Below are positions 16,485-48,350 of a stretch of 64,000 bases of DNA, piece by piece. How positions within the stretch are numbered: position 1 is the stretch's first letter; every line of letters begins with the position of its first letter. A program made the position numbers and the translations under genes. The notes below the pieces were generated by a model. It was given only the letters and a program-made list of their open reading frames with translations. It ran no database searches and was not told where the DNA came from. This stretch comes from Escherichia phage SUT_E1620: the sequence record OQ939939. The stretch is one strand, 5' to 3'.

Positions 16485-17252
16485 TTATTCAGCAGCCGCA
16501 GCTTTTGCATCCAGTTTAGCACGCTTAGCGGCACCATCATAGTCCTTAGCAACCAGACCACGACGAGACAGCATAGATTTAACACCGCGCTCAGACTTAC
16601 CAGTTTTCTCAGCGATCTCAGCAACAGTCATGTTAGCCAGATCCAGACCTTCTAACAGATCTTCACGAGTTTTAGCACTTGAAGTTTCCTGTACCGGCAT
16701 AGCAGCGATACGACCTTCACGAAGCAGACTCAGAGCTTTACCACGGATCTGCTTAATATTGCGACCGAAGTGAGCAGCGATAGCTTCAATAGTAGCACCA
16801 GCAACAACCTGATTAACGAAATCAGTTTCTTCGTCAGGAGTGAAGGAACGAACAGCAGCAGCTTTTTCGGTTGGCTTAACAGAAGCAGTCATTTCCAGAC
16901 TCAGGATCTTACCCTGTACCTGCTTAGCACCGAACTGACCACCAGCTACAGCAGCAGCGATTTCAGCGTAAGTATACTGACCAGCATGAGCGTTCAGGAA
17001 ATCAACCAGTTCAGCTTCCTGCTCAGGAGTCCACGGGGATTTCTGTACTTCGTTTGCTTTCTGTACTTCGAAACCTTCTTTACGCAGCTTAGAGCCAACA
17101 GAGCGAGCGGTAACGTCTTTACCAGTCTCGGTAGCCAGTTCAGCAGCGATAGCAGCTACTTGTTCTTGAGAGATTACAGCAACACCCAGAGCAGTGGCTT
17201 TTGCTTTCAGAGACTCGGTTACACCTTCTACGTTCCAGTTCAGTTTAGACAT
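16485..17252 (-). CDS. Abundant DNA-binding protein (T5 D5-like position), Ala-rich with internal repeats
   Basis: 255 aa; host-optimal codon usage; duplicated GxKxLSL/HTH-like segments; synteny next to ligase genes. Confidence 0.55.
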   Translation of the reverse strand: MSKLNWNVEGVTESLKAKATALGVAVISQEQVAAIAAELATETGKDVTARSVGSKLRKEGFEVQKANEVQKSPWTPEQEAELVDFLNAHAGQYTYAEIAAAVAGGQFGAKQVQGKILSLEMTASVKPTEKAAAVRSFTPDEETDFVNQVVAGATIEAIAAHFGRNIKQIRGKALSLLREGRIAAMPVQETSSAKTREDLLEGLDLANMTVAEIAEKTGKSERGVKSMLSRRGLVAKDYDGAAKRAKLDAKAAAAE

Positions 17253-18027
17253 TATTATTTTTCTCCAATAGTTCTTTAATCGACAGGATTTCTATCCCAT
17301 TCGTTTCGGCTTTCTTATAAGATGAGGAAGAACGTTTTGATTCATCCTCACAGATTAGGTATTTGACGTCTTTGGTAACGGACTTCTTAACCGTATATCC
17401 TAGACTTTCTAAATAGTTTGTTGCATCCGTTCGATTTGCAAAATCTTGCAAAGATCCGGTAATACAGACCGTGATTCCATTTGGCTGGGCAACTAAATCA
17501 TCTGTAATGATGATATCAGCTTTAGCACCTCGAATACCAGTTGAGAATTTCCACGGTAATTCAATAACATCCTTGCCTTGTGGGGAATTTAGCCAGGTTT
17601 TGTAATTTTCTCCAGCCTTGCCGTCAGCCTTCACATCGTGGAAGCTAGTGCAATTTTGGGACAGTTTCTTTGCTGCAACCTCTCCAATAAGAGGAATTCC
17701 TAAAGAACCGAGAACCGAACCAAAGTCAATGTCTCCGCGAACCTTAGTATTTAACTCGCTAATCAACTTAGCGGCAACCTTGCTACCCACAGCTCCGACC
17801 AAATCTTCTTCGGTCAGGTAAAACAGTTCTGAGATCTTAGTCAGTTCCAGCTTCTCAATAGTTTTCGGGCCAAAGCCCTTTAACTTCATTTTTGTGCAGA
17901 AGTTCTCGATTAACTTACTTGATTGCGCTGGACAGTTGGACTTATTCCTACAGAATAATTGCCCGTTGACAAGATCTAGCTTAGAACCACAAGAGGGACA
18001 TTGTGTTGGAATTTCGATTTTCATCAA
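17245..18027 (-). CDS. NAD-dependent DNA ligase, subunit B (Zn-finger/HhH/BRCT part)
   Basis: Cys4 motif CPSCGSKL...CRNKSNC, HhH-like GIGPKT, C-terminal BRCT-like region. Confidence 0.75.
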   Translation of the reverse strand: MMKIEIPTQCPSCGSKLDLVNGQLFCRNKSNCPAQSSKLIENFCTKMKLKGFGPKTIEKLELTKISELFYLTEEDLVGAVGSKVAAKLISELNTKVRGDIDFGSVLGSLGIPLIGEVAAKKLSQNCTSFHDVKADGKAGENYKTWLNSPQGKDVIELPWKFSTGIRGAKADIIITDDLVAQPNGITVCITGSLQDFANRTDATNYLESLGYTVKKSVTKDVKYLICEDESKRSSSSYKKAETNGIEILSIKELLEKNNNV

Positions 18028-18044
18028 ATTTCTTCCTTATCAAT

Positions 18045-18095
18045 TTATATAAATATTATAGCAAGTATTTAAGCATTTAGCAACTACAATTTTAA
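18045..18095 (-). promoter_or_regulatory. Sigma70-type early promoter (minus strand)
   Basis: Reverse complement TTGCTA-N17-TATAAT plus conserved ATAAATTGATAAGG box immediately before ligase B start. Confidence 0.7.
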
Positions 18096-18226
18096 CTAAC
18101 TTTGCTTACCCTCGCCATAACTTTCTATCCCTCAACTGAATGATAATAGTATATACCTAAGCGGCGAAAATGTCAATAACCACTTTATAATTCCGACACG
18201 GTAAACGGGTAGCAAAGGGTTACGAA

Positions 18227-19198
18227 TTAGTCGTATACTCGCTCTACTATACAAGGGATTACACCACCAGCACGAATCACTCGAATCTGGCAACCGATCT
18301 CTAAATCGAGAGCGTTAATATAATCAACGTTATTAAGAGTTGCTTTAACGATTGTGGCATCATCAATAATCACCGGTTCGAAATAACCAACTGGAGTTAC
18401 TTTACCAGAAGCCCCTACTTGCCATTCAACTTTAACAAGTGTGGTAATTTCGCCTTCTTCATCCTCTTTAATAGCAAATGCACCACGAGGAAATTTATTA
18501 GTCCAACCTTCACGGAAGAATTTATTGTTGTCGTTAATACGAACAACTTTACCGTCCGTCGGAATCCATTTAAAAAAGGAACGAACATTAACAACTGTCA
18601 AGAAGTTCTCATTCTCTAGCCAAAGCATATCTTTTAAATAGGCTTCTGTAATACCGACTGTTTCCGCTGAACACTGGATACCATATGCAACGAAGATTAA
18701 ACCACCTTCACCAATACGTTGCATGAAATCATCACTATCTTTCAGGTTAATAGCACCCGAAGCGTAGTTACGTTTGTTCTCTACTTCTTTAGTAATGAGA
18801 ACTTCACCAGTGATTTGAGTTGGTACTTTTTGGGAAATAGTTTTGGGGATGTTTAGCATTTTAACATTATGCGTTACATCATTCCCTAGAATACCGTTAC
18901 CACGAGTTAACGCTTGAACAAATTCACCATTAATGTATAATAGAGAAATCGCACAACCATCTAACTTATCAGTTTCAACCTGACCTAATGGATTAAACGG
19001 AGCTTTATCACCACGATCGTAATAGACTTTCTGTAAAGAATACATACGATACAAATGAGGAATATCACCTTTCGGCCCGATTTCTTCCTCTAGCGGGAAT
19101 CTTTTAATCAGACGATCATATTCTTCATCGGAAATAAGACTCATTCCCTGGTAGTACGCTTCTTGACAACGTTTGATAAAGTCTTTTACATTATTCAT
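18227..19198 (-). CDS. NAD-dependent DNA ligase, subunit A (adenylation/OB part)
   Basis: KxDG adenylation motif (ETDKLDGC), NAD-ligase N-terminal region. Confidence 0.8.
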   Translation of the reverse strand: MNNVKDFIKRCQEAYYQGMSLISDEEYDRLIKRFPLEEEIGPKGDIPHLYRMYSLQKVYYDRGDKAPFNPLGQVETDKLDGCAISLLYINGEFVQALTRGNGILGNDVTHNVKMLNIPKTISQKVPTQITGEVLITKEVENKRNYASGAINLKDSDDFMQRIGEGGLIFVAYGIQCSAETVGITEAYLKDMLWLENENFLTVVNVRSFFKWIPTDGKVVRINDNNKFFREGWTNKFPRGAFAIKEDEEGEITTLVKVEWQVGASGKVTPVGYFEPVIIDDATIVKATLNNVDYINALDLEIGCQIRVIRAGGVIPCIVERVYD

Positions 19199-25654: not shown

Positions 25655-25700
25655 TGGGAATATTATACTATAAAATAATACTCCCTTGCAAATGAAATTT
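25655..25700 (-). promoter_or_regulatory. Sigma70-type promoter (minus strand) with ~350-nt leader before origin-binding-protein gene
   Basis: Reverse complement TTGCAA-N17-TATAAT plus CCCATAAATGAGAGA box. Confidence 0.6.
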
Positions 25701-26152
25701 TACTGGATTGATTCCCTACCGTATAATTGACCTCTAAACATCTTGGCCATAGAACATGCAACCTCATAGTTGTCATATGTTCCTTTAACTATACGTTTAC
25801 GGTTAATAGTAAATACTACTTGCCAATTCTTACTACCAGAAGGGTAAACATGCATTCCTTTCTTATATTTGATATTTCTTAGATTACCGGATACTGTTTG
25901 CTCTCTAAGATTTTCAATACGATCATCACCTTTTATAGTATTCACATGATCTACTAAATCAGGTAAGTATCCATGATGCATTAAAAATATTGCTCTATGC
26001 CGAAGCATAGTCCTATTCCCTAGAGATATACGATAATATCCGTTACCCGTAGAAACACAACATTCTTTCCCTGCATTTCTTCCTGTAGTTCTAAATAACT
26101 TACCATCTTCATATCGGAAGTTATCTAAAAGTTCTTGCTGTGTGAATGACAT
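25700..26152 (-). CDS. HNH homing endonuclease
   Basis: Motif HRAIFLMHHGYLPDLVDHVNTIKGDDRIENL; start set at internal Met MSFTQQ. Confidence 0.75.
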   Translation of the reverse strand: MSFTQQELLDNFRYEDGKLFRTTGRNAGKECCVSTGNGYYRISLGNRTMLRHRAIFLMHHGYLPDLVDHVNTIKGDDRIENLREQTVSGNLRNIKYKKGMHVYPSGSKNWQVVFTINRKRIVKGTYDNYEVACSMAKMFRGQLYGRESIQ

Positions 26153-26291
26153 CCTCACCTCCAATACATATATTATTACATAATCCATCCAAATTGTCAA
26201 CGACAATTTATTTTGACTGTCAATCGACTGGAAAGATTACGTAATAATCCGAGCACTAATAGCCCGGATTACAAATTTCAGCTAATAAAAA

Positions 26292-26687
26292 TCATTCATC
26301 ATTTAAGCCCGAAACATAAATCCCAACACGATTTAATTGTTCTTTAGCTTCTGCGAGAATATTTGGAGTGTACTCCCAAATATCATCTTCCACCTGTAAA
26401 AGATGGGGCGAACAACCGTCATCAGGCACACGACATATGGCCAAACCACGTGGATGGAATATAGAGAAGTTTAGGGCAACAATCAAGCCCATGCTGGACA
26501 ATTCATTCCAGTCAGCTTCCCAACCATCATCTTCATTTTCGTCCACAAAGACACCTACACTAGGGTCTGTTACAGAAGTAAACGGAAATGTTACACTAAC
26601 CTTGTCAACCCCCCACCAACGTGCAAGGAGCCCCTCAGCACGCTCTACCAAACTAGGATCTATCTGACGCCAAAATACTTGTTCCAT
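26292..26687 (-). CDS. Hypothetical acidic protein, paralog A of tandem pair
   Basis: Shares DWxELxxMGLxxALNxxxFxP and C-terminal WxYxP...LxRxG motifs with adjacent ORF. Confidence 0.6.
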   Translation of the reverse strand: MEQVFWRQIDPSLVERAEGLLARWWGVDKVSVTFPFTSVTDPSVGVFVDENEDDGWEADWNELSSMGLIVALNFSIFHPRGLAICRVPDDGCSPHLLQVEDDIWEYTPNILAEAKEQLNRVGIYVSGLNDE

Positions 26688-26696
26688 TCTGCCTCC

Positions 26697-27125
26697 TTAA
26701 GCAGTTAAACCTGGGATCATATACCCGAAACGACGAAGTTTCTGAATTCCCTCATTTACTTCCTCGGGCGAATATGACCAGCCCTCACGTTCATTTACCT
26801 GGAAAGCAGGAGCTTCACCAGTGCGATAATTTACAATAAGACGGTGATTTGCAGGCATAAACAGCTTATGGTTCAAGGCAAAAACCAGACCCATTTCATC
26901 GAGTTCTTTCCAGTCTACAATCTCTTCTACTCCCTCCCCTAAATCCACGCTAACTCCAATACACGGAGCTTCCTCTAGCGGGCCTTTAAAGGATAAGAAG
27001 ATATCGTTATTCTCACACCAAATCTTGAGCAGATTGATGGTTTCATTATACATACCATTAGGGAGAGAGCGCCAGAAGTTGAGAAGCATAGGATTTACCT
27101 CTTTCATGAAAATATTATTGAACAT
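26697..27125 (-). CDS. Hypothetical protein, paralog B of tandem pair
   Basis: See paralog A; tandem duplication. Confidence 0.6.
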   Translation of the reverse strand: MFNNIFMKEVNPMLLNFWRSLPNGMYNETINLLKIWCENNDIFLSFKGPLEEAPCIGVSVDLGEGVEEIVDWKELDEMGLVFALNHKLFMPANHRLIVNYRTGEAPAFQVNEREGWSYSPEEVNEGIQKLRRFGYMIPGLTA

Positions 27126-27127
27126 GC

Positions 27128-27667
27128 TTATACCTTAAGTTTCTGAAGAGCCTTACACATTTCAAGATCTGGACTAAATTCCAGCATATAGCTGATAGCA
27201 TTTAAATCTTGAAGGTTTATTCCAGTCCTACCATTTACAATAACAGTAGGAAATTGGTACATCATAGCACCAGCATCATCTAGGACGCACCAATGCTTGA
27301 GCTTATGTTTTTCTACGAAACGTAAGACAGAATTACCTCGAGATAAACCACCTCCAGTAAAATCTGTTGTACCAAGGAAACGATCGATCAAACCGAGCCC
27401 GGTCATAATCTGAACGTTCTCCATCTCGTTTCGTACAGAAAACCATGAAGATACCCCAACAATCATTATTGGAGAAGGTTTAAGGAAGTTCTGAAAAGCC
27501 TGGAGTAATGGCTTATAAACCCAATCACTACCAAAGAATAGCTTTTCACTATCTGGAGCATGATGGTGAGAGATGCTCGAATTGAGCACCCCATCAATAT
27601 CCAGGAAAATTATAGGAGTATTACTTATTTCCACCAGTAGCATCCCACGTCCAGACTTTAACTTCAT
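27128..27667 (-). CDS. HAD-superfamily hydrolase (phosphatase/nucleotidase-like)
   Basis: N-terminal FLDIDGVLN matches HAD motif I (DxDGxx); 179 aa. Confidence 0.65.
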   Translation of the reverse strand: MKLKSGRGMLLVEISNTPIIFLDIDGVLNSSISHHHAPDSEKLFFGSDWVYKPLLQAFQNFLKPSPIMIVGVSSWFSVRNEMENVQIMTGLGLIDRFLGTTDFTGGGLSRGNSVLRFVEKHKLKHWCVLDDAGAMMYQFPTVIVNGRTGINLQDLNAISYMLEFSPDLEMCKALQKLKV

Positions 27668-27806
27668 CAGTAAAAGGAACTGGAACCTTCAGCTCACCTT
27701 TACCCCACATAACAGATAGGAACAGAGAATAAATGGTAATCATACCGATTAGGTTGACAAACCATACTAGACCTTTCCAGATACCCTTAAAAATCTTCTT
27801 TATCAT
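27621..27806 (-). CDS. Small membrane protein (61 aa)
   Basis: Hydrophobic helix WKGLVWFVNLIGMITIYSLFLSVMW; overlaps neighbours in operon fashion. Confidence 0.45.
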   Translation of the reverse strand: MIKKIFKGIWKGLVWFVNLIGMITIYSLFLSVMWGKGELKVPVPFTDEVKVWTWDATGGNK

Positions 27807-28018
27807 TCGTTCTCCTCTAGGAACGCTTTATGTTCCGGTGTGTCGATATAGATTACACAGAAATCATCTGACATATAATCCATTTCCCACAACTCTTCAC
27901 GATAGCACCATGTTTTATCTGGCCATACAATTATATCATCAGGGTGTCTTTTAGGTGATTTGTAAAATCGGGGATCTGATCCCATATCTCCCATTTTACC
28001 CTTATTAGGATGCGACAT
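27803..28018 (-). CDS. Hypothetical protein (71 aa)
   Basis: Six-frame ORF in operon. Confidence 0.45.
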   Translation of the reverse strand: MSHPNKGKMGDMGSDPRFYKSPKRHPDDIIVWPDKTWCYREELWEMDYMSDDFCVIYIDTPEHKAFLEENE

Positions 28019-28847
28019 AAATAGTTCCTTCCATAAAGGCTTCTACTTGACCAATGAAATGCTTGTTACCAAAAACTTCGGCAGCTCCAGCACGCCATAC
28101 AGTAACACCACGTTTCTCATACTCAAGCTGTTCGTCATAACGAACTTGTGGGTTAACAACCATCATCTTAGTTCCACGACATACAGCAGGAAATAGCTCC
28201 CAGTTGAAGTCGATTACTTGGTTGCTACAACCTACTACAATAACCATATCATTGCTAGTAAGTGTATCAAACAGGTTAATCTGACCCATATACCACGGAG
28301 CCGTCTCACCAAAGAATGTTACGTTTGGTTTTACCCATTCGTAATCCTCAGGGGCAATCGCAGTATACCCAACATCTTCGATGATTTGGTTGCGACCCTG
28401 ACGATAGATCACCTCTTTCAAGTACCCGTGAGCGTGAATGATTTCATCACGAGGGATACCAGCACGTTCCAGAAGGTCATCAACGTTAGTAGTGAAGTTC
28501 TTCACGCTATCCGCACCATAACGCTGGAACCATTCTGCAATTCGCAGATGGGCAATGTTAGGCTCAACAGTCTGTAATTCCTGACGACGCATATTGTAGA
28601 ACTCATGAGTCTTGAGATACAGATCGTTACCATCTTCATCAATGCCATGGAAACGAGCACTGAAGTAGTTAGGGTCATCTTCACCACAGAAGCGACGGAA
28701 GCCAGCTTCAAAGTTAGGCAAGCTACATACTTCCTCTAGATCGTACTCATCCCACAAGGATTTCCCACTAGCAGTATCAGTACGGAAAGCACGAACACCA
28801 CTATCTACACTCAAACCTGCACCACTAACAACGATTAGTCTACGCAT
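28005..28847 (-). CDS. Sir2-like (sirtuin-fold) NAD-binding protein lacking the zinc-ribbon module
   Basis: GAGxSxxSGxxxFR (VSGAGLSVDSGVRAFR), TTNVD (cf. TQNID), catalytic-type HG (HAHGY), VVVGCS (cf. VVVGTS); no CxxC pairs. Confidence 0.7.
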   Translation of the reverse strand: MRRLIVVSGAGLSVDSGVRAFRTDTASGKSLWDEYDLEEVCSLPNFEAGFRRFCGEDDPNYFSARFHGIDEDGNDLYLKTHEFYNMRRQELQTVEPNIAHLRIAEWFQRYGADSVKNFTTNVDDLLERAGIPRDEIIHAHGYLKEVIYRQGRNQIIEDVGYTAIAPEDYEWVKPNVTFFGETAPWYMGQINLFDTLTSNDMVIVVGCSNQVIDFNWELFPAVCRGTKMMVVNPQVRYDEQLEYEKRGVTVWRAGAAEVFGNKHFIGQVEAFMEGTIYVAS

Positions 28848-29041
28848 TATACGATTCCTTGCTTGAATCCTTCGATGATATTTTGGAGCAGAATTGCTTC
28901 TTCTGGGCGAACCTTCTCTTGCTTAATAAGCATATCCAAACCAGCAATACAAGTAGCTACCCCAGCATTATATCCAGCATTCCACTGCTCCATGAGCATA
29001 TTTTCTAAATTACTTTTTAGATTCTGATTCAAGAAGTCCAT
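28847..29041 (-). CDS. Hypothetical protein (64 aa)
   Basis: Start at internal ATG (MDFLNQ) preceded by GGAGG. Confidence 0.45.
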   Translation of the reverse strand: MDFLNQNLKSNLENMLMEQWNAGYNAGVATCIAGLDMLIKQEKVRPEEAILLQNIIEGFKQGIV

Positions 29042-29214
29042 AAAGTTTTTCCTCCAATTCCATAATACGATTTTCGTAAGAAGCACGCAGCTTCTCGATG
29101 GACAAAGCACGAACTGTAACTTCATCTGAATTGATCGCTAGCTGAGCTAGATCTTCTGTTTCCATACGTCCGTTGTAAATTAAGCGATACTTAAGATGTT
29201 TTACGTTTTTCATA
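29010..29214 (-). CDS. Hypothetical protein (68 aa)
   Basis: ATG (MKNVKH) preceded by GAGAGGAG directly downstream of promoter. Confidence 0.5.
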
Positions 29215-29229
29215 TTTTCTCCTCTCAAA

Positions 29230-29280
29230 TTTATGAGAATATAATATCAAATAAAAGCGATATAAGCAAGTACTTTATTT
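29230..29280 (-). promoter_or_regulatory. Sigma70-type early promoter (minus strand) for accessory operon
   Basis: Reverse complement TTGCTT-N17-TATTAT plus CATAAATTTGAGAGG box. Confidence 0.65.
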
Positions 29281-29965
29281 ATTTTTCTACCTTCACACAC
29301 CCATTATTAATTAAATACTCTTCCGCGACTGTAGCAGATATATCGAAGAATTCAGTACATCCAGCAAATCCTGTATACTTTAACCTATATCCTGAAAAGT
29401 ATTCATGAGCCTGCTTCTCAATAGCTCTACTTTTAGACTTGGTACCTATATCTACTGAATAGACACCAAAAATATACAAATCCATTATATTGGAACTTTT
29501 AACTATCTCTTTCCTTCGTCTTTCAGGAGAGACACTAATTCCTATTTTAGTTCCCATATTACTACACATAATGTATATAAAACCAGGAACACTCCAATCA
29601 GTATCACATACAGGACATCCAGAATTCTTATTCTTTACATTACCTACTGTAGCTTCCCACGTATGCCCATACTCACATTCAAAAAGGGTTTTAGTAGCAT
29701 TATTTTTATACTCTCCAATAAGGGTTATACCTCTGCCACGTAACTCTTCGTTCACCGAATCTTTGGTAAGCTTTAAAGTACCTGAGCATATTGGACAGCC
29801 AGATTTGCTGTTCCTTACATTATTAACCGTAGCTTCCCACGTATGACCTATATTACATCTGAACGTACCCTTACTAAGGATTCCTGAATACTCGCTTACT
29901 AGCTTAATTCTTCTAGGCTCTAAATCTTTATTGATAGTATCTTTATCTAACTTCCTTCGTACCAT
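29279..29965 (-). CDS. Duplicated zinc-ribbon protein with C-terminal T5orf172-like (GIY-YIG-related) domain
   Basis: Two repeats of GHTWEATVxNVxNxxSGCPxC; C-terminal GFIYIMCSNMGTKIGIS resembles T5orf172 domain core. Confidence 0.6.
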   Translation of the reverse strand: MVRRKLDKDTINKDLEPRRIKLVSEYSGILSKGTFRCNIGHTWEATVNNVRNSKSGCPICSGTLKLTKDSVNEELRGRGITLIGEYKNNATKTLFECEYGHTWEATVGNVKNKNSGCPVCDTDWSVPGFIYIMCSNMGTKIGISVSPERRRKEIVKSSNIMDLYIFGVYSVDIGTKSKSRAIEKQAHEYFSGYRLKYTGFAGCTEFFDISATVAEEYLINNGCVKVEK

Positions 29966-30020: not shown

Positions 30021-30047
30021 AAAGCCAGGTCGACTAGCAACCTGGCT
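30011..30047 (-). terminator. Rho-independent terminator after nrdD (minus strand)
   Basis: GCCAGGT...ACCTGGC hairpin followed on minus strand by TTTTATTTTATTT. Confidence 0.75.
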
Positions 30048-31949: not shown

Positions 31950-31995
31950 AGACTACTATTATAACTCATTCGAAGGCGGATGTCAACAATATTTT
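31950..31995 (-). promoter_or_regulatory. Sigma70-type promoter for nrdD (minus strand)
   Basis: Reverse complement TTGACA-N17-TATAAT. Confidence 0.6.
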
Positions 31996-46934: not shown

Positions 46935-47879
46935 ATGTTTACTAAAAACACTAAAGAACTGACTTCCGATCAAAAAGTAATTCGTACTATTAAACGTTGG
47001 GGTGTTGGTGCTGTAGTTGGTCTTGGCGCTCTTATTCTGGCTCTCAATTCCTATACAGTTGTTCAGGACGGTACGGTTAAAACTCAGACTTTCCTGGGTA
47101 AAGTTAGTCCTAATCCTGTATTGCCGGGGTTCCATATTGTTAACCCATTTGCTTCTTTTGATACTTTTAGTACGAAAGATATTTCCATGAAACTGGATAA
47201 ACTTCAGGTTCCTAGCCAGGATAAGTTTAAGTCTACTGTTGACATTACCGTTATGTTGCAGTTTGATGGTGCTAAAGCTCCTATGAACCGTGTTAACGCA
47301 GGTACTCAGGATCAAGCTCTGAACAAGTACGTTGAAGAGAAGATGCTGTCTACGATTCGTGAGTTTGGTAAGTCTGTACCAAAAGCACAAGATCTGTTCG
47401 ACGCTAAGATTCAGGCTCAACTGCAAACCGCTATTCAGCAAGAAGTAGAAGAGTACGCGCGCCCTTATGGTTACACCGTTAAGCAAGTATTCCTTCAGGA
47501 TATTACTCTGCCACCGGTAATTATGGAACAGGTACAGAACACCAAAGTTCGTGAAGAACAAGTTAACGCTGCAAAAGCTGAACTGGCTCGTGTTGAACAA
47601 GAAGCACAGCAGAAAGTTAAGCAAGCTGAGGCAGATCGTTCCGCTCGTGAAAATATGGCAGTAGCTAACGAACGTGACGCAGATGCTAAACTGTACGCAG
47701 CTAAGAAAGAAGCTGAAGCTAACGCCGCTCTGCAACGTACCATTACTCCTGAAATGATTCGTTGGAAGCAGCTGGAAGTTGAAATGCTTCGTGCTGAAAA
47801 ATACCAAGGTGGTGTACCGCAGACTGTTGTCGGTACTGGCTACGATGGTCAAATGATCATGGATATGCGTAACAAGTAA
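46935..47879 (+). CDS. SPFH/band-7 (prohibitin-like) membrane protein
   Basis: N-terminal TM helix (WGVGAVVGLGALILAL), SPFH-like core, C-terminal coiled coil; 341-aa minus-strand ORF here judged antisense artefact. Confidence 0.7.
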   Translation: MFTKNTKELTSDQKVIRTIKRWGVGAVVGLGALILALNSYTVVQDGTVKTQTFLGKVSPNPVLPGFHIVNPFASFDTFSTKDISMKLDKLQVPSQDKFKSTVDITVMLQFDGAKAPMNRVNAGTQDQALNKYVEEKMLSTIREFGKSVPKAQDLFDAKIQAQLQTAIQQEVEEYARPYGYTVKQVFLQDITLPPVIMEQVQNTKVREEQVNAAKAELARVEQEAQQKVKQAEADRSARENMAVANERDADAKLYAAKKEAEANAALQRTITPEMIRWKQLEVEMLRAEKYQGGVPQTVVGTGYDGQMIMDMRNK

Positions 47880-47902
47880 TAGTTACACGTAATCTTCGAA
47901 CC

Positions 47903-47938
47903 AAGCCCGCGTTTCCTCCGAGAGCGCGGGCTTTTCTG
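47903..47938 (+). terminator. Rho-independent terminator (first of tandem pair)
   Basis: AAGCCCGCG...CGCGGGCTT hairpin followed by TTCTG. Confidence 0.75.
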
Positions 47939-47954
47939 TATTTAAGGCAAAAGA

Positions 47955-47992
47955 AAAAGCCCCTTACCTTTCGGCAGGGGCTTTTGTTTTTT
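47955..47992 (+). terminator. Rho-independent terminator (second of tandem pair)
   Basis: AAAAGCCCCT...AGGGGCTTTT hairpin followed by GTTTTTT. Confidence 0.8.
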
Positions 47993-48053
47993 GGTTTAGA
48001 ACCATACTCTTGGTGTACAGCAACCACCCATACGGGAGAGAGAGGAATCAAAC

Positions 48054-48350
48054 ATGAAACGCATTGTACTTGCATTGACTCTAGTATCTACTTCTGTATT
48101 TGCTGCTCCGCAACAGGAACTTTGTCAAGTTCAGGTTTGTAATAAGTTAGAACGATTTACTTTGGATATTTGGTCACACATTAAAGATAATATGGGTGAA
48201 CAGTGTTTTGATATTGTTCTGCCAAAAGAGCAGGCTGTTCCTGGTGCTGTTCTTAGCTCAGAGTCACGTTGGTGGCAGGGTTCTTCTATCAACCCAACTA
48301 AGAAGTCAGTGACACGTATCAAACAAGTATATCAGTGCAACGTTCAGTAA
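48054..48350 (+). CDS. Secreted small protein (signal peptide)
   Basis: 98 aa; N-terminal MKRIVLALTLVSTSVFAAPQ signal-peptide-like; RBS GAGAGAGG. Confidence 0.6.
   Translation: MKRIVLALTLVSTSVFAAPQQELCQVQVCNKLERFTLDIWSHIKDNMGEQCFDIVLPKEQAVPGAVLSSESRWWQGSSINPTKKSVTRIKQVYQCNVQ

Follow-up and report, generated by a model that had tools for sequence, protein, structure and literature searches.

Escherichia phage SUT_E1620 (sequence record OQ939939; the whole 64,000-nucleotide stretch analysed here is referred to as the window) encodes a Sir2-like protein and a HAD-type phosphatase, which together form a conserved but dispensable early-gene module beside genes of nucleotide metabolism and replication. 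The Sir2-like open reading frame (ORF) encodes a sirtuin whose ancestry lies in the CobB/SIRT5-type (class III) enzymes, and the HAD ORF is predicted to be a capless phosphatase with intact catalytic motifs. The function favoured here, at a probability of roughly 40%, is that the sirtuin would transfer ADP-ribose (ADPR) to a phosphate acceptor in a Tpt1-like manner, with clean-up by the HAD enzyme; the model was put forward by Iyer et al. (2022) and is extended here. The two genes are located as follows:

28005..28847, minus strand: Sir2-like sirtuin of 280 amino acids (aa), phrog_2162 (Pfam, PDB sequence search, AlphaFold2 (AF2) model, Foldseek)
27128..27667, minus strand: predicted capless HAD phosphatase, HAD_SAK_2; alternative start at 27643

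The locus as such is already known, as the gene is annotated in hundreds of genomes and a functional hypothesis has been published; hence, it is a rediscovery and not a new system. For the Sir2/CobB gene in T5, the T5 genome paper of Wang et al. (2005) is cited, and T5 and its relatives (in GenBank 'Sir2-like protein / NAD-dependent deacetylase of SIR2 family') carry the same gene, the T5-proper-type allele being only about 51% identical. The neighbourhood of Sir2 and a 'Swiss-army-knife' HAD in T5-like phages was described in section 3.7.3 of Iyer, Burroughs, Anantharaman and Aravind (2022; Viruses 14:1977, PMC9503650), where three neighbourhood types are distinguished for a phage 'RNA-repair' sirtuin clade, type 3 being that of Escherichia phage SP15. 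With a T5-like sirtuin and a HAD_SAK phosphatase in a conserved neighbourhood, the window belongs to type 3 and does not differ materially from the description in that section; clade members named there (Serratia phage BF, rV5-type) were recovered here as homologues. According to the proposal made there, the sirtuin is KptA/Tpt1-like and strips 2'-phosphates from RNA, while associated enzymes act on the RNA end or on the ADPR cyclic phosphate that is produced. The additions made here are the derived, clade-wide loss of zinc ligands, a link of HAD_SAK_2 to NARP1-type recycling of nicotinamide adenine dinucleotide (NAD), and natural deletions taking both genes; in the section cited, zinc-ligand loss is not discussed and NARP1-adjacent HAD homologues are not mentioned.

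The Sir2 ORF matches the Pfam family SIR2 (PF02146) with an E-value of 6.3e-22 (78.8 bits, cutoff 24) and phrog_2162, annotated 'Sir2', with 4e-107, and it displays the motifs GAGLSVDSGVRAFR, TTNVD, HAHG and IVVGCS. In a PDB sequence search, CobB (1s5p) was the best match (1.6e-16), followed by two Archaeoglobus Sir2 proteins, SIRT5 and Thermotoga Sir2. An AF2 model built on 56 diverse homologues (mean predicted local distance difference test score, pLDDT, of 90) gave CobB as top Foldseek match (target-normalised TM-score 0.83), followed by Af-Sir2 and SIRT5, the Foldseek probability being 1.00 for about 50 sirtuin structures. Pfam profile and predicted structure thus agree with the first-pass annotation, made from the bare sequence, in which this ORF was taken for a Sir2-fold protein of NAD-using type; the NAD motifs quoted there are present as well, apart from the trivial point that the last one had been given as VVVGCS. 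All NCBIfam matches are to models named 'NAD-dependent protein deacylase', and their scores of 71-88 bits fall short of cutoffs of 221-395. CobB orthology was rejected, the best CobB equivalog scores (71-72 bits) lying far under their cutoffs (318-320).

Throughout the 56 homologues, G9-A-G11, S16 and F21-R22 of the NAD-binding loop, N121 and D123 of the nicotinamide pocket, His140, FFxE178-181, G206 and S208 are invariant. The same holds for Y84 and R87, which in a pairwise alignment fall on the Tyr-x-x-Arg dyad of CobB (FYNARR); in SIRT5 and CobB, it is this dyad that holds the distal carboxylate when the substrate is succinyl- or malonyl-lysine. When 1.84 billion cluster representatives (50%-identity clusters) were searched exhaustively, 1609 matches were obtained at E<=0.001, and among the best 139 of suitable length, which were aligned, His140 is found in 139/139, Tyr84 in 131/139 and Arg87 in 101/139. 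Judged by these residues, the protein keeps everything needed for binding NAD+ and cleaving off nicotinamide, as well as its catalytic His and the class-III dyad. With CobB (1s5p, 6rx*) and human and zebrafish SIRT5, the phage protein has in common GAGxS, SGxxxFR, (T/Q)N(I/V)D, the catalytic His, FGE, GxS and Tyr-x-x-Arg; it differs from them in being only 26-27% identical, phage-encoded and linked to a phosphatase, in having all zinc-ligand Cys replaced and, compared with CobB, in about 26 residues of the helical subdomain (~48-76) that remain unmatched in the pairwise alignment.

The only cysteines of the protein are C41, C54, C207 and C223, none of which lies between His140 and FFGE178-181, and the ligand columns of the Cys4 zinc site (CxxC...CxxC) read Y, G, gap, gap. 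The module (His-Gly...FFG) could be delimited in 106 of 120 listed homologues; Cys is absent from it in 77 of these and occurs once in 29. In the alignment of 139 representatives, 21 of the nearest 25 lack Cys at all four ligand columns, while 85 of the next 114 carry three or four ligand Cys; many of the Cys-bearing relatives retain the 'IGY...KPNVVFFGE' signature of the phage protein, and sister sequences of the same subfamily still have CxxC...CxxC. The three-stranded zinc-ribbon sheet is present in the model (strands 141-150, 153-158 and 172-176, pLDDT ~93-95). Because Cys-bearing relatives share the signature and the model keeps the sheet, the protein is best described as a class-III-like sirtuin with a ribbon minus ligands and not as a stripped-down domain without insert, and the loss of ligands is a derived feature of one entire, phage-dominated clade. 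The earlier description as zinc-ribbon-less is hence correct for the Cys4 ligands and incorrect for the sheet.

The resemblance to stripped-down NADase or ADP-ribosyltransferase Sir2 domains that had been drawn from this description did not hold up, as CobB, Af-Sir2 and SIRT5 are nearest and the sisters keep CxxC...CxxC. PADLOC defence models gave no match to the protein at E<=0.01, PF13289 (SIR2_2) none in a Pfam scan at E<=0.1, and defence-type SIR2 structures are absent from the 50 listed Foldseek matches; an identity as defence-type SIR2/NADase was rejected, given the missing PADLOC/SIR2_2 match and the deacylases as nearest folds. With defence SIR2 NADases (ThsA, DSR1/2, SIR2-HerA, KomC; PF13289), the phage protein shares the Sir2 fold, NAD+ cleavage and the missing Cys4 site; unlike them, it keeps the sheet of the zinc module and a deacylase-type acceptor site, and it is phage- and not host-encoded. 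The adjacent Macro gene of SirTM-type, Macro-linked ADP-ribosylating sirtuins is likewise missing, with no Pfam match to a Macro domain in the eight neighbouring cluster ORFs scanned (26292..29228); its absence from the phage sirtuin clade is also stated in the section cited above (Iyer et al. 2022, PMC9503650).

The HAD ORF matches PF18143 (HAD_SAK_2) with E=4.6e-19 (69.6 bits, cutoff 27.5) and carries all four HAD motifs intact, namely D-I-D (I), S-S (II), R (III) and D-D (IV), so that the HAD-type phosphatase named in the first-pass annotation is confirmed. Across 26 HAD homologues, FLDIDGVLN, GVSSWF, R and DD show little or no variation. The model (pLDDT 95.5) confirms the fold, a HAD core with a small hairpin where capped HADs have their cap. 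Among known folds, the capless phosphoprotein phosphatases MDP-1 and Scp1 are closest, this similarity being of a generic capless-HAD kind and too weak for a substrate assignment; a profile search against PDB sequences gave no match. The HAD core is common to MDP-1, Scp1/CTD phosphatases and the phosphatase domains of T4 and mammalian PNKP, in which the cap is replaced by a small flap at most. Capless HADs tend toward large substrates, e.g. proteins or nucleic-acid ends.

The sirtuin was found by tblastn in 980 phage records, comprising T5-like phages, rV5/phAPEC8-like myoviruses, Klebsiella phages, Vibrio schizoT4-like phages and jumbo phages (Serratia BF, 121Q), and the HAD in 498 phage records, mostly T5-like. 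In many Epseptimavirus-type phages (GreteKellenberger, Stitch, TrudiRoth) the window sirtuin is 96-99% identical, and its position between nrdD and the primase/origin-binding gene is common to T5-like relatives. Two sirtuin alleles of T5-like phages are only ~51% identical, while the adjoining HAD is ~90% identical in the same genomes (e.g. L6jm), from which it follows that the sirtuin was swapped as a cassette; the sharp mosaic boundary at the sirtuin probably reflects cassette exchange between T5-like lineages. The window allele is closer to the phAPEC8/rV5-like myovirus copies (58-60% identity).

Linkage of the two genes extends further. Pectobacterium phage My1, from another subfamily, has the order nrdD-x-x-Sir2-x-HAD, two metagenomic T5-like contigs show the reversed order HAD-x-Sir2 with a HAD of only 40-45% identity, and in T5-like loci from IMG/VR Sir2 lies immediately upstream of HAD in 19/19. 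The Sir2-HAD linkage is, therefore, conserved across Demerecviridae despite divergence and rearrangement. The genes are nevertheless separable, as phAPEC8-like loci have a sirtuin without HAD and Serratia phage ChuuTotoro has the HAD and no sirtuin across its 147-kb genome. Furthermore, SelmaRatti and DT57C carry two different deletions, each joining a sirtuin fragment to the HAD C-terminus:

DT57C locus L019, 2468..2740: in-frame-looking deletion chimera
SelmaRatti locus L020, 2501..2950: in-frame-looking deletion chimera

In SelmaRatti and DT57C, the chimeras comprise Sir2 1-130 plus HAD 128-179 and Sir2 197-250 plus HAD 139-179, and both catalytic centres are gone. These deletions are independent and represent natural knockouts of the module in viable Tequintavirus isolates. 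The viability of these isolates shows the module, lost as a unit in both, to be accessory, which upholds the accessory status suggested for the operon at the outset. As regards annotation, the HAD gene is misnamed 'Sir2 (NAD-dependent deacetylase)' in several RefSeq T5-like genomes (NC_048867, NC_048781, NC_027297), and phrog_18062 (92 aa, annotated 'Sir2') in fact corresponds to the HAD, in its C-terminal half (E=1.6e-54). This mis-annotation is propagating and probably arose from Sir2-HAD deletion chimeras like those in DT57C and SelmaRatti.

In the favoured reaction, the acceptor would be a 2'-phosphate, and not an acyl-lysine, borne by RNA (tRNA) that host nucleases of the anticodon or metal-independent type have cut. 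The phosphate oxygen would attack C1'' while nicotinamide departs, and the ribose 2''-OH, activated by His140, would then attack phosphorus, giving RNA with a 2'-OH and ADP-ribose 1'',2''-cyclic phosphate. The HAD might either heal the phosphorylated RNA end first or dephosphorylate the ADP-ribose phosphate by-product to ADPR. By analogy, both of the proposed steps would map one-to-one on normal sirtuin chemistry and on Tpt1/KptA, and the phosphate-acceptor reaction needs exactly the conserved residues of the sirtuin. The reaction proposed is the same as that of Tpt1/KptA (RNA 2'-phosphate to ADP-ribose 1'',2''-cyclic phosphate, NAD+-dependent); the fold of the latter is unrelated (ART-type), which makes the comparison one of analogy only. 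Lysine deacylation by sirtuins yields O-acyl-ADPR and no phosphate ester, and a phosphomonoesterase partner such as the HAD can be rationalised only with a phosphate-bearing substrate or product. The 27 tRNA genes of the window, which form a block further on, are a heavy investment of the phage in tRNA and were counted in favour of RNA repair.

The HAD contexts added here tie this phosphatase family to ADP-ribose/NAD recycling. In ChuuTotoro and in one metagenomic Vequintavirinae-like contig, a HAD_SAK_2 homologue with 37-40% identity to the window HAD lies directly upstream of Prs-like and NAPRTase-family genes (Adps-Namat, NARP1). The respective segments are L004 5001..8217 and L013 35888..39104 for ChuuTotoro, where the locus adjoins a tRNA block, and L005 5001..8569 for the metagenomic contig. 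NARP1 (Adps-Namat) rebuilds NAD+ from ADPR and nicotinamide (NARP1 paper), the Macro-domain phosphatase Adpp of extended NARP1 operons acts on ADP-ribose-1''-phosphate (ADPR-1''P) and yields ADPR (Osterman et al. 2026, preprint), and RyDEP, a RyR-domain glycosidase beside NARP1, converts cyclic ADPR isomers into ADPR. Adpp and the HAD have unrelated folds; the homologue of the window HAD stands at the equivalent place next to Adps-Namat, and the window is without NARP1. The decay product of ADP-ribose pyrophosphate (ADPR-PP) was tentatively given as ADPR cyclic phosphate (NARP1 paper). It may be the same compound as the proposed product of the sirtuin, and ADPR cyclic phosphate would then provide, as we infer, a single rationale for a HAD beside both sirtuin and NARP1. 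The full combination, in which the zinc-less sirtuin would be a sirtuin-fold Tpt1 analogue acting on an RNA 2'-phosphate or a different phospho-acceptor, and HAD_SAK_2 a hitherto unrecognised ADP-ribose-phosphate phosphatase and non-homologous counterpart of Adpp, serving the sirtuin in T5-like phages and supplying ADPR to NARP1 in Vequintavirinae-like phages, is unlikely to be right in all its parts; if true, it would connect the repair of RNA by phages with the arms race over NAD+. The literature searched makes no mention of a HAD that partners NARP1, and a DNA-level search for the HAD-Adps-Namat triple returned only 3 records at >=80% coverage, so the NARP1 link is a lead and not a pattern.

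In jumbo phage BF, the sirtuin belongs to a row of genes that also encode NMNAT-Nudix, NadV and a 2H phosphoesterase, together with a Nudt16-like Nudix joined to cREC ('cyclic-phosphate processing receiver domain'). The 'RNA ligase'-annotated gene of this phage (locus L021, 4281..4727) is a 148-aa 2H phosphoesterase, its best Pfam match being Acb1, the anti-CBASS nuclease (3.6e-15). This 2H/Acb1 match blurs the published RNA-repair reading of the neighbourhood with an immune-signal-degrading one. Since relatives of both genes adjoin phage NAD-salvage or NAD-reconstitution genes, the NAD-centred role put forward in the first-pass annotation is reasonable; that the module counters NAD-depleting defences or manipulates NAD pools is speculation.

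Several observations weigh against phosphate transfer with HAD clean-up. Taken alone, the sequence would favour a deacylase, given that FFGE, the GxS loop, His140 and Tyr-x-x-Arg are all kept, and the acidic isoelectric point (pI 4.8; median 4.95 over 120 homologues) is unusual for an RNA-binding enzyme. No experimental study of any member of the phage sirtuin clade was found in the literature searched, only genome descriptions and two surveys of the Aravind group. With the queries used, tblastn gave no match in the window to NARP1, NARP2, NARP3, 2H, Nudix-cREC or two RNA-ligase types; no RNA ligase, 2H, Nudix-cREC or kinase was recognisable with them, and a complete heal-and-seal pathway is not visible. 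The published type-2 context (RNA ligase, kinase, MazG) was not reproduced at Pfam level at two sirtuin loci, one in a phAPEC8-like contig and one in phage ukendt, which may not represent the prototype genus; within 6-10 kb, nothing could be recognised there apart from a calcineurin-like phosphoesterase and an Acb2/Tad1-like gene. HAD-NARP1 adjacency comes down to only two distinct loci, and the proximity counts among sixty more distant HAD-like loci from IMG/VR, in themselves favourable to phosphate transfer, have no background rate to be read against: Nudix-cREC or NMNAT-Nudix lies immediately downstream in 3/60, NadV/NMNAT within 5 kb in 3/60 and an RNA ligase within 5 kb in 4/60, two of these being the same loci as for NadV/NMNAT. 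In two other contigs, an RNA ligase lies 3 kb from a HAD homologue, and nothing informative emerged from the surroundings of HAD homologues of T4-like phages (Morganella Rgz1, Aeromonas Aes012).

The strongest competitor is an ordinary lysine deacylase, i.e. a CobB-like deacetylase/desuccinylase acting early on host or phage proteins (e.g. RNA polymerase, metabolic or replication proteins), with the HAD as a neighbour or as a phosphoprotein phosphatase; this is quite possible, and we tend to doubt it. Its best sequence and fold matches (CobB, Af-Sir2, SIRT5), the deacylase names of all NCBIfam models and the invariant catalytic His, FFGE and Tyr84/Arg87 are what such an enzyme should have, but a score of 71 against 320 bits at the CobB equivalog cutoff means that it is not a CobB orthologue, and the host already has CobB. 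The acidic pI fits a protein-directed enzyme, and MDP-1 and Scp1 as nearest HAD folds would suit a phosphoprotein phosphatase; neighbours elsewhere, however, are NAD/ADPR or cyclic-phosphate enzymes and not protein-modification genes. What decides most against it is the partner gene: as no phosphomonoester is made, linkage of Sir2 and HAD through three Demerecviridae lineages and a change of order would go unexplained, even though many phages have the sirtuin without HAD, as in the phAPEC8-like loci.

Less probable, and in our view rather improbable, is a counter-defence acting on small NAD/ADPR molecules, in which sirtuin and HAD would process or recycle immune metabolites such as the ADPR-1''-phosphate of aRES-type systems or other ADPR-based signals. 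HAD homologues do head NARP1 operons in the position that Adpp takes elsewhere, the sirtuin of phage BF lies between NadV/NMNAT (NARP2-type), the Acb1-like 2H enzyme and Nudix-cREC, a gene of the Acb2/Tad1-hairpin kind is 4 kb off in phAPEC8-like phages, and closely related phages carry NARP3, a NAD-restoring pair. Yet the window has no NARP1, NARP2 or NARP3 genes that the HAD product could feed, and proximity to anti-defence genes may merely reflect a common location of early accessory genes. We also know of no sirtuin chemistry that degrades ADPR signals or rebuilds NAD+ from free ADPR, which was counted against this possibility. Finally, a free NADase or generic ADP-ribosyltransferase that depletes host NAD+ like defence SIR2 effectors is very improbable, for although its zinc ligands are missing as in defence SIR2 domains and the nicotinamide-cleavage pocket is intact, there is no similarity to defence SIR2 models or among the 50 listed fold matches, the catalytic His and acceptor-side residues are strictly conserved and would be needless for a simple hydrolase, the phage's own DNA ligase (17248..19198) needs NAD+, and relatives invest in rebuilding NAD+.

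Phosphate transfer by the sirtuin followed by HAD clean-up thus remains the favoured function, and the residual interest of the Sir2/HAD locus lies in its biochemistry. About a thousand sequenced enterobacterial phages (T5-like, rV5/phAPEC8-like, Klebsiella, Vibrio, jumbo) carry the sirtuin. NAD+ is a central battleground between phages and bacteria, where bacteria deploy NAD-depleting defences and phages NARP1-3, Adpp and RyDEP, so that a phage enzyme which consumes NAD+ must bring a valuable return. Should the sirtuin prove to use phosphate acceptors, sirtuin chemistry would be wider and counter-defence would gain an RNA-repair or metabolite-recycling arm; should it prove to be a plain deacylase, it would offer a clear example of viral editing of the bacterial acyl-proteome.

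As for the genomic setting, the 4 kb surrounding the locus matched 467 phage records, the best being Salmonella and Escherichia T5-like phages with 93-97% identity, by which the window can be assigned to T5-like phage DNA (Demerecviridae, Epseptimavirus type). Gene order is that of the T5 early region, i.e. primase/origin-binding protein, two DUF7415 genes, HAD, small ORFs, Sir2, small ORFs and nrdD; past nrdD, PhoH and nrdAB follow on the opposite strand. The remaining features of the cluster are:

29241..29269, minus strand: weak sigma-70-like promoter candidate TTGCTT-17-TATTAT, read from the sequence, ahead of the first gene of the cluster
29010..29213, minus strand: small ORF of 67 aa, phrog_5236; ribosome-binding site GAGAGGAG before the ATG at 29213
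28847..29041, minus strand: small ORF of 64 aa, phrog_5827; its stop overlaps the Sir2 start codon (TAATG)
27803..28018, minus strand: small acidic ORF of 71 aa, phrog_5116; position variable among relatives
27621..27806, minus strand: ORF61, 61 aa, phrog_11166; one predicted transmembrane helix (hydropathy)
26697..27125, minus strand: DUF7415 protein of 142 aa (Pfam PF24187, 9e-37); starts 2 nt after HAD
26292..26687, minus strand: second DUF7415 protein, 131 aa (Pfam PF24187, 4.5e-25); paralogue with ~30% identity (tblastn)

All genes of the Sir2/HAD cluster run in the same (minus) direction, each with a Shine-Dalgarno site, and overlap or abut. The promoter candidate (29269..29241) is the sole promoter-like site in front of the first small ORF; it matches 3/6 positions of the -35 and 5/6 of the -10 element and stays below the threshold of a consensus scan. 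Upstream of it lies the strong nrdD terminator with a 10-bp stem (30047..30023), which together with a perfect promoter (TTGACA-17-TATAAT, 31986..31958) brackets nrdD. A single promoter-driven minus-strand operon, as initially annotated, is accordingly plausible only: co-directional, packed genes speak for it, while the promoter is a weak candidate. Of the small membrane or unknown ORFs listed there, ORF61 has one predicted transmembrane helix (Kyte-Doolittle 19-residue mean of 1.93, residues 14-32), while the other three small ORFs are not hydrophobic.

The 67-aa ORF is 87-100% identical in T5-like relatives, phages with the Sir2/HAD deletion included, and the 71-aa ORF is 100% identical in SIY1lw, 59% identical over partial length in TrudiRoth and fragmented in KKP_3831. 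The 142-aa DUF7415 gene, probably in the same transcription unit as HAD, is intact in phages with the Sir2/HAD deletion. The tandem DUF7415 paralogues (26292..27125, minus strand) are acidic and kept both in phages without Sir2/HAD and in Pectobacterium phage My1.

Two further observations concern NAD elsewhere in the window. The NARP3 pair of TrudiRoth (NadR-like Bas30_86 and PnuC-like Bas30_87, between bas30_0085 and bas30_0088) is missing at the syntenic site (46935..48350, plus strand), where the flanking genes are 100% identical to those of TrudiRoth and ~175 nt apart; judged by this sequence, it looks like a clean presence/absence polymorphism of a NAD+-restoring anti-defence cassette. 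The NAD-dependent DNA ligase is encoded by two subunit genes (17248..18024 and 18230..19198, minus strand; 98-99% identical to the A and B subunits of TrudiRoth), and phage replication therefore depends on the NAD+ pool that its own sirtuin spends.

Lastly, two endonuclease genes flank the region. A homing-endonuclease-like gene (29279..29965, minus strand), with DUF4379 treble-clef zinc fingers, CapR homology, T5orf172/MUG113 and its own TATAAT box, is inserted after the nrdD terminator and ahead of the Sir2 cluster, where TrudiRoth has the small gene bas30_0057 instead, and is also present in phage KKP_3831. A homing endonuclease of T5orf172 type is not found in relatives such as TrudiRoth. 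An HNH_3 endonuclease ORF (25700..26206, minus strand) separates the second DUF7415 gene from the primase/origin-binding gene, a place where several close relatives have no annotated gene; a near-consensus promoter (TTGACA-17-AATAAT, 26200..26172) falls within its annotated 5' end.

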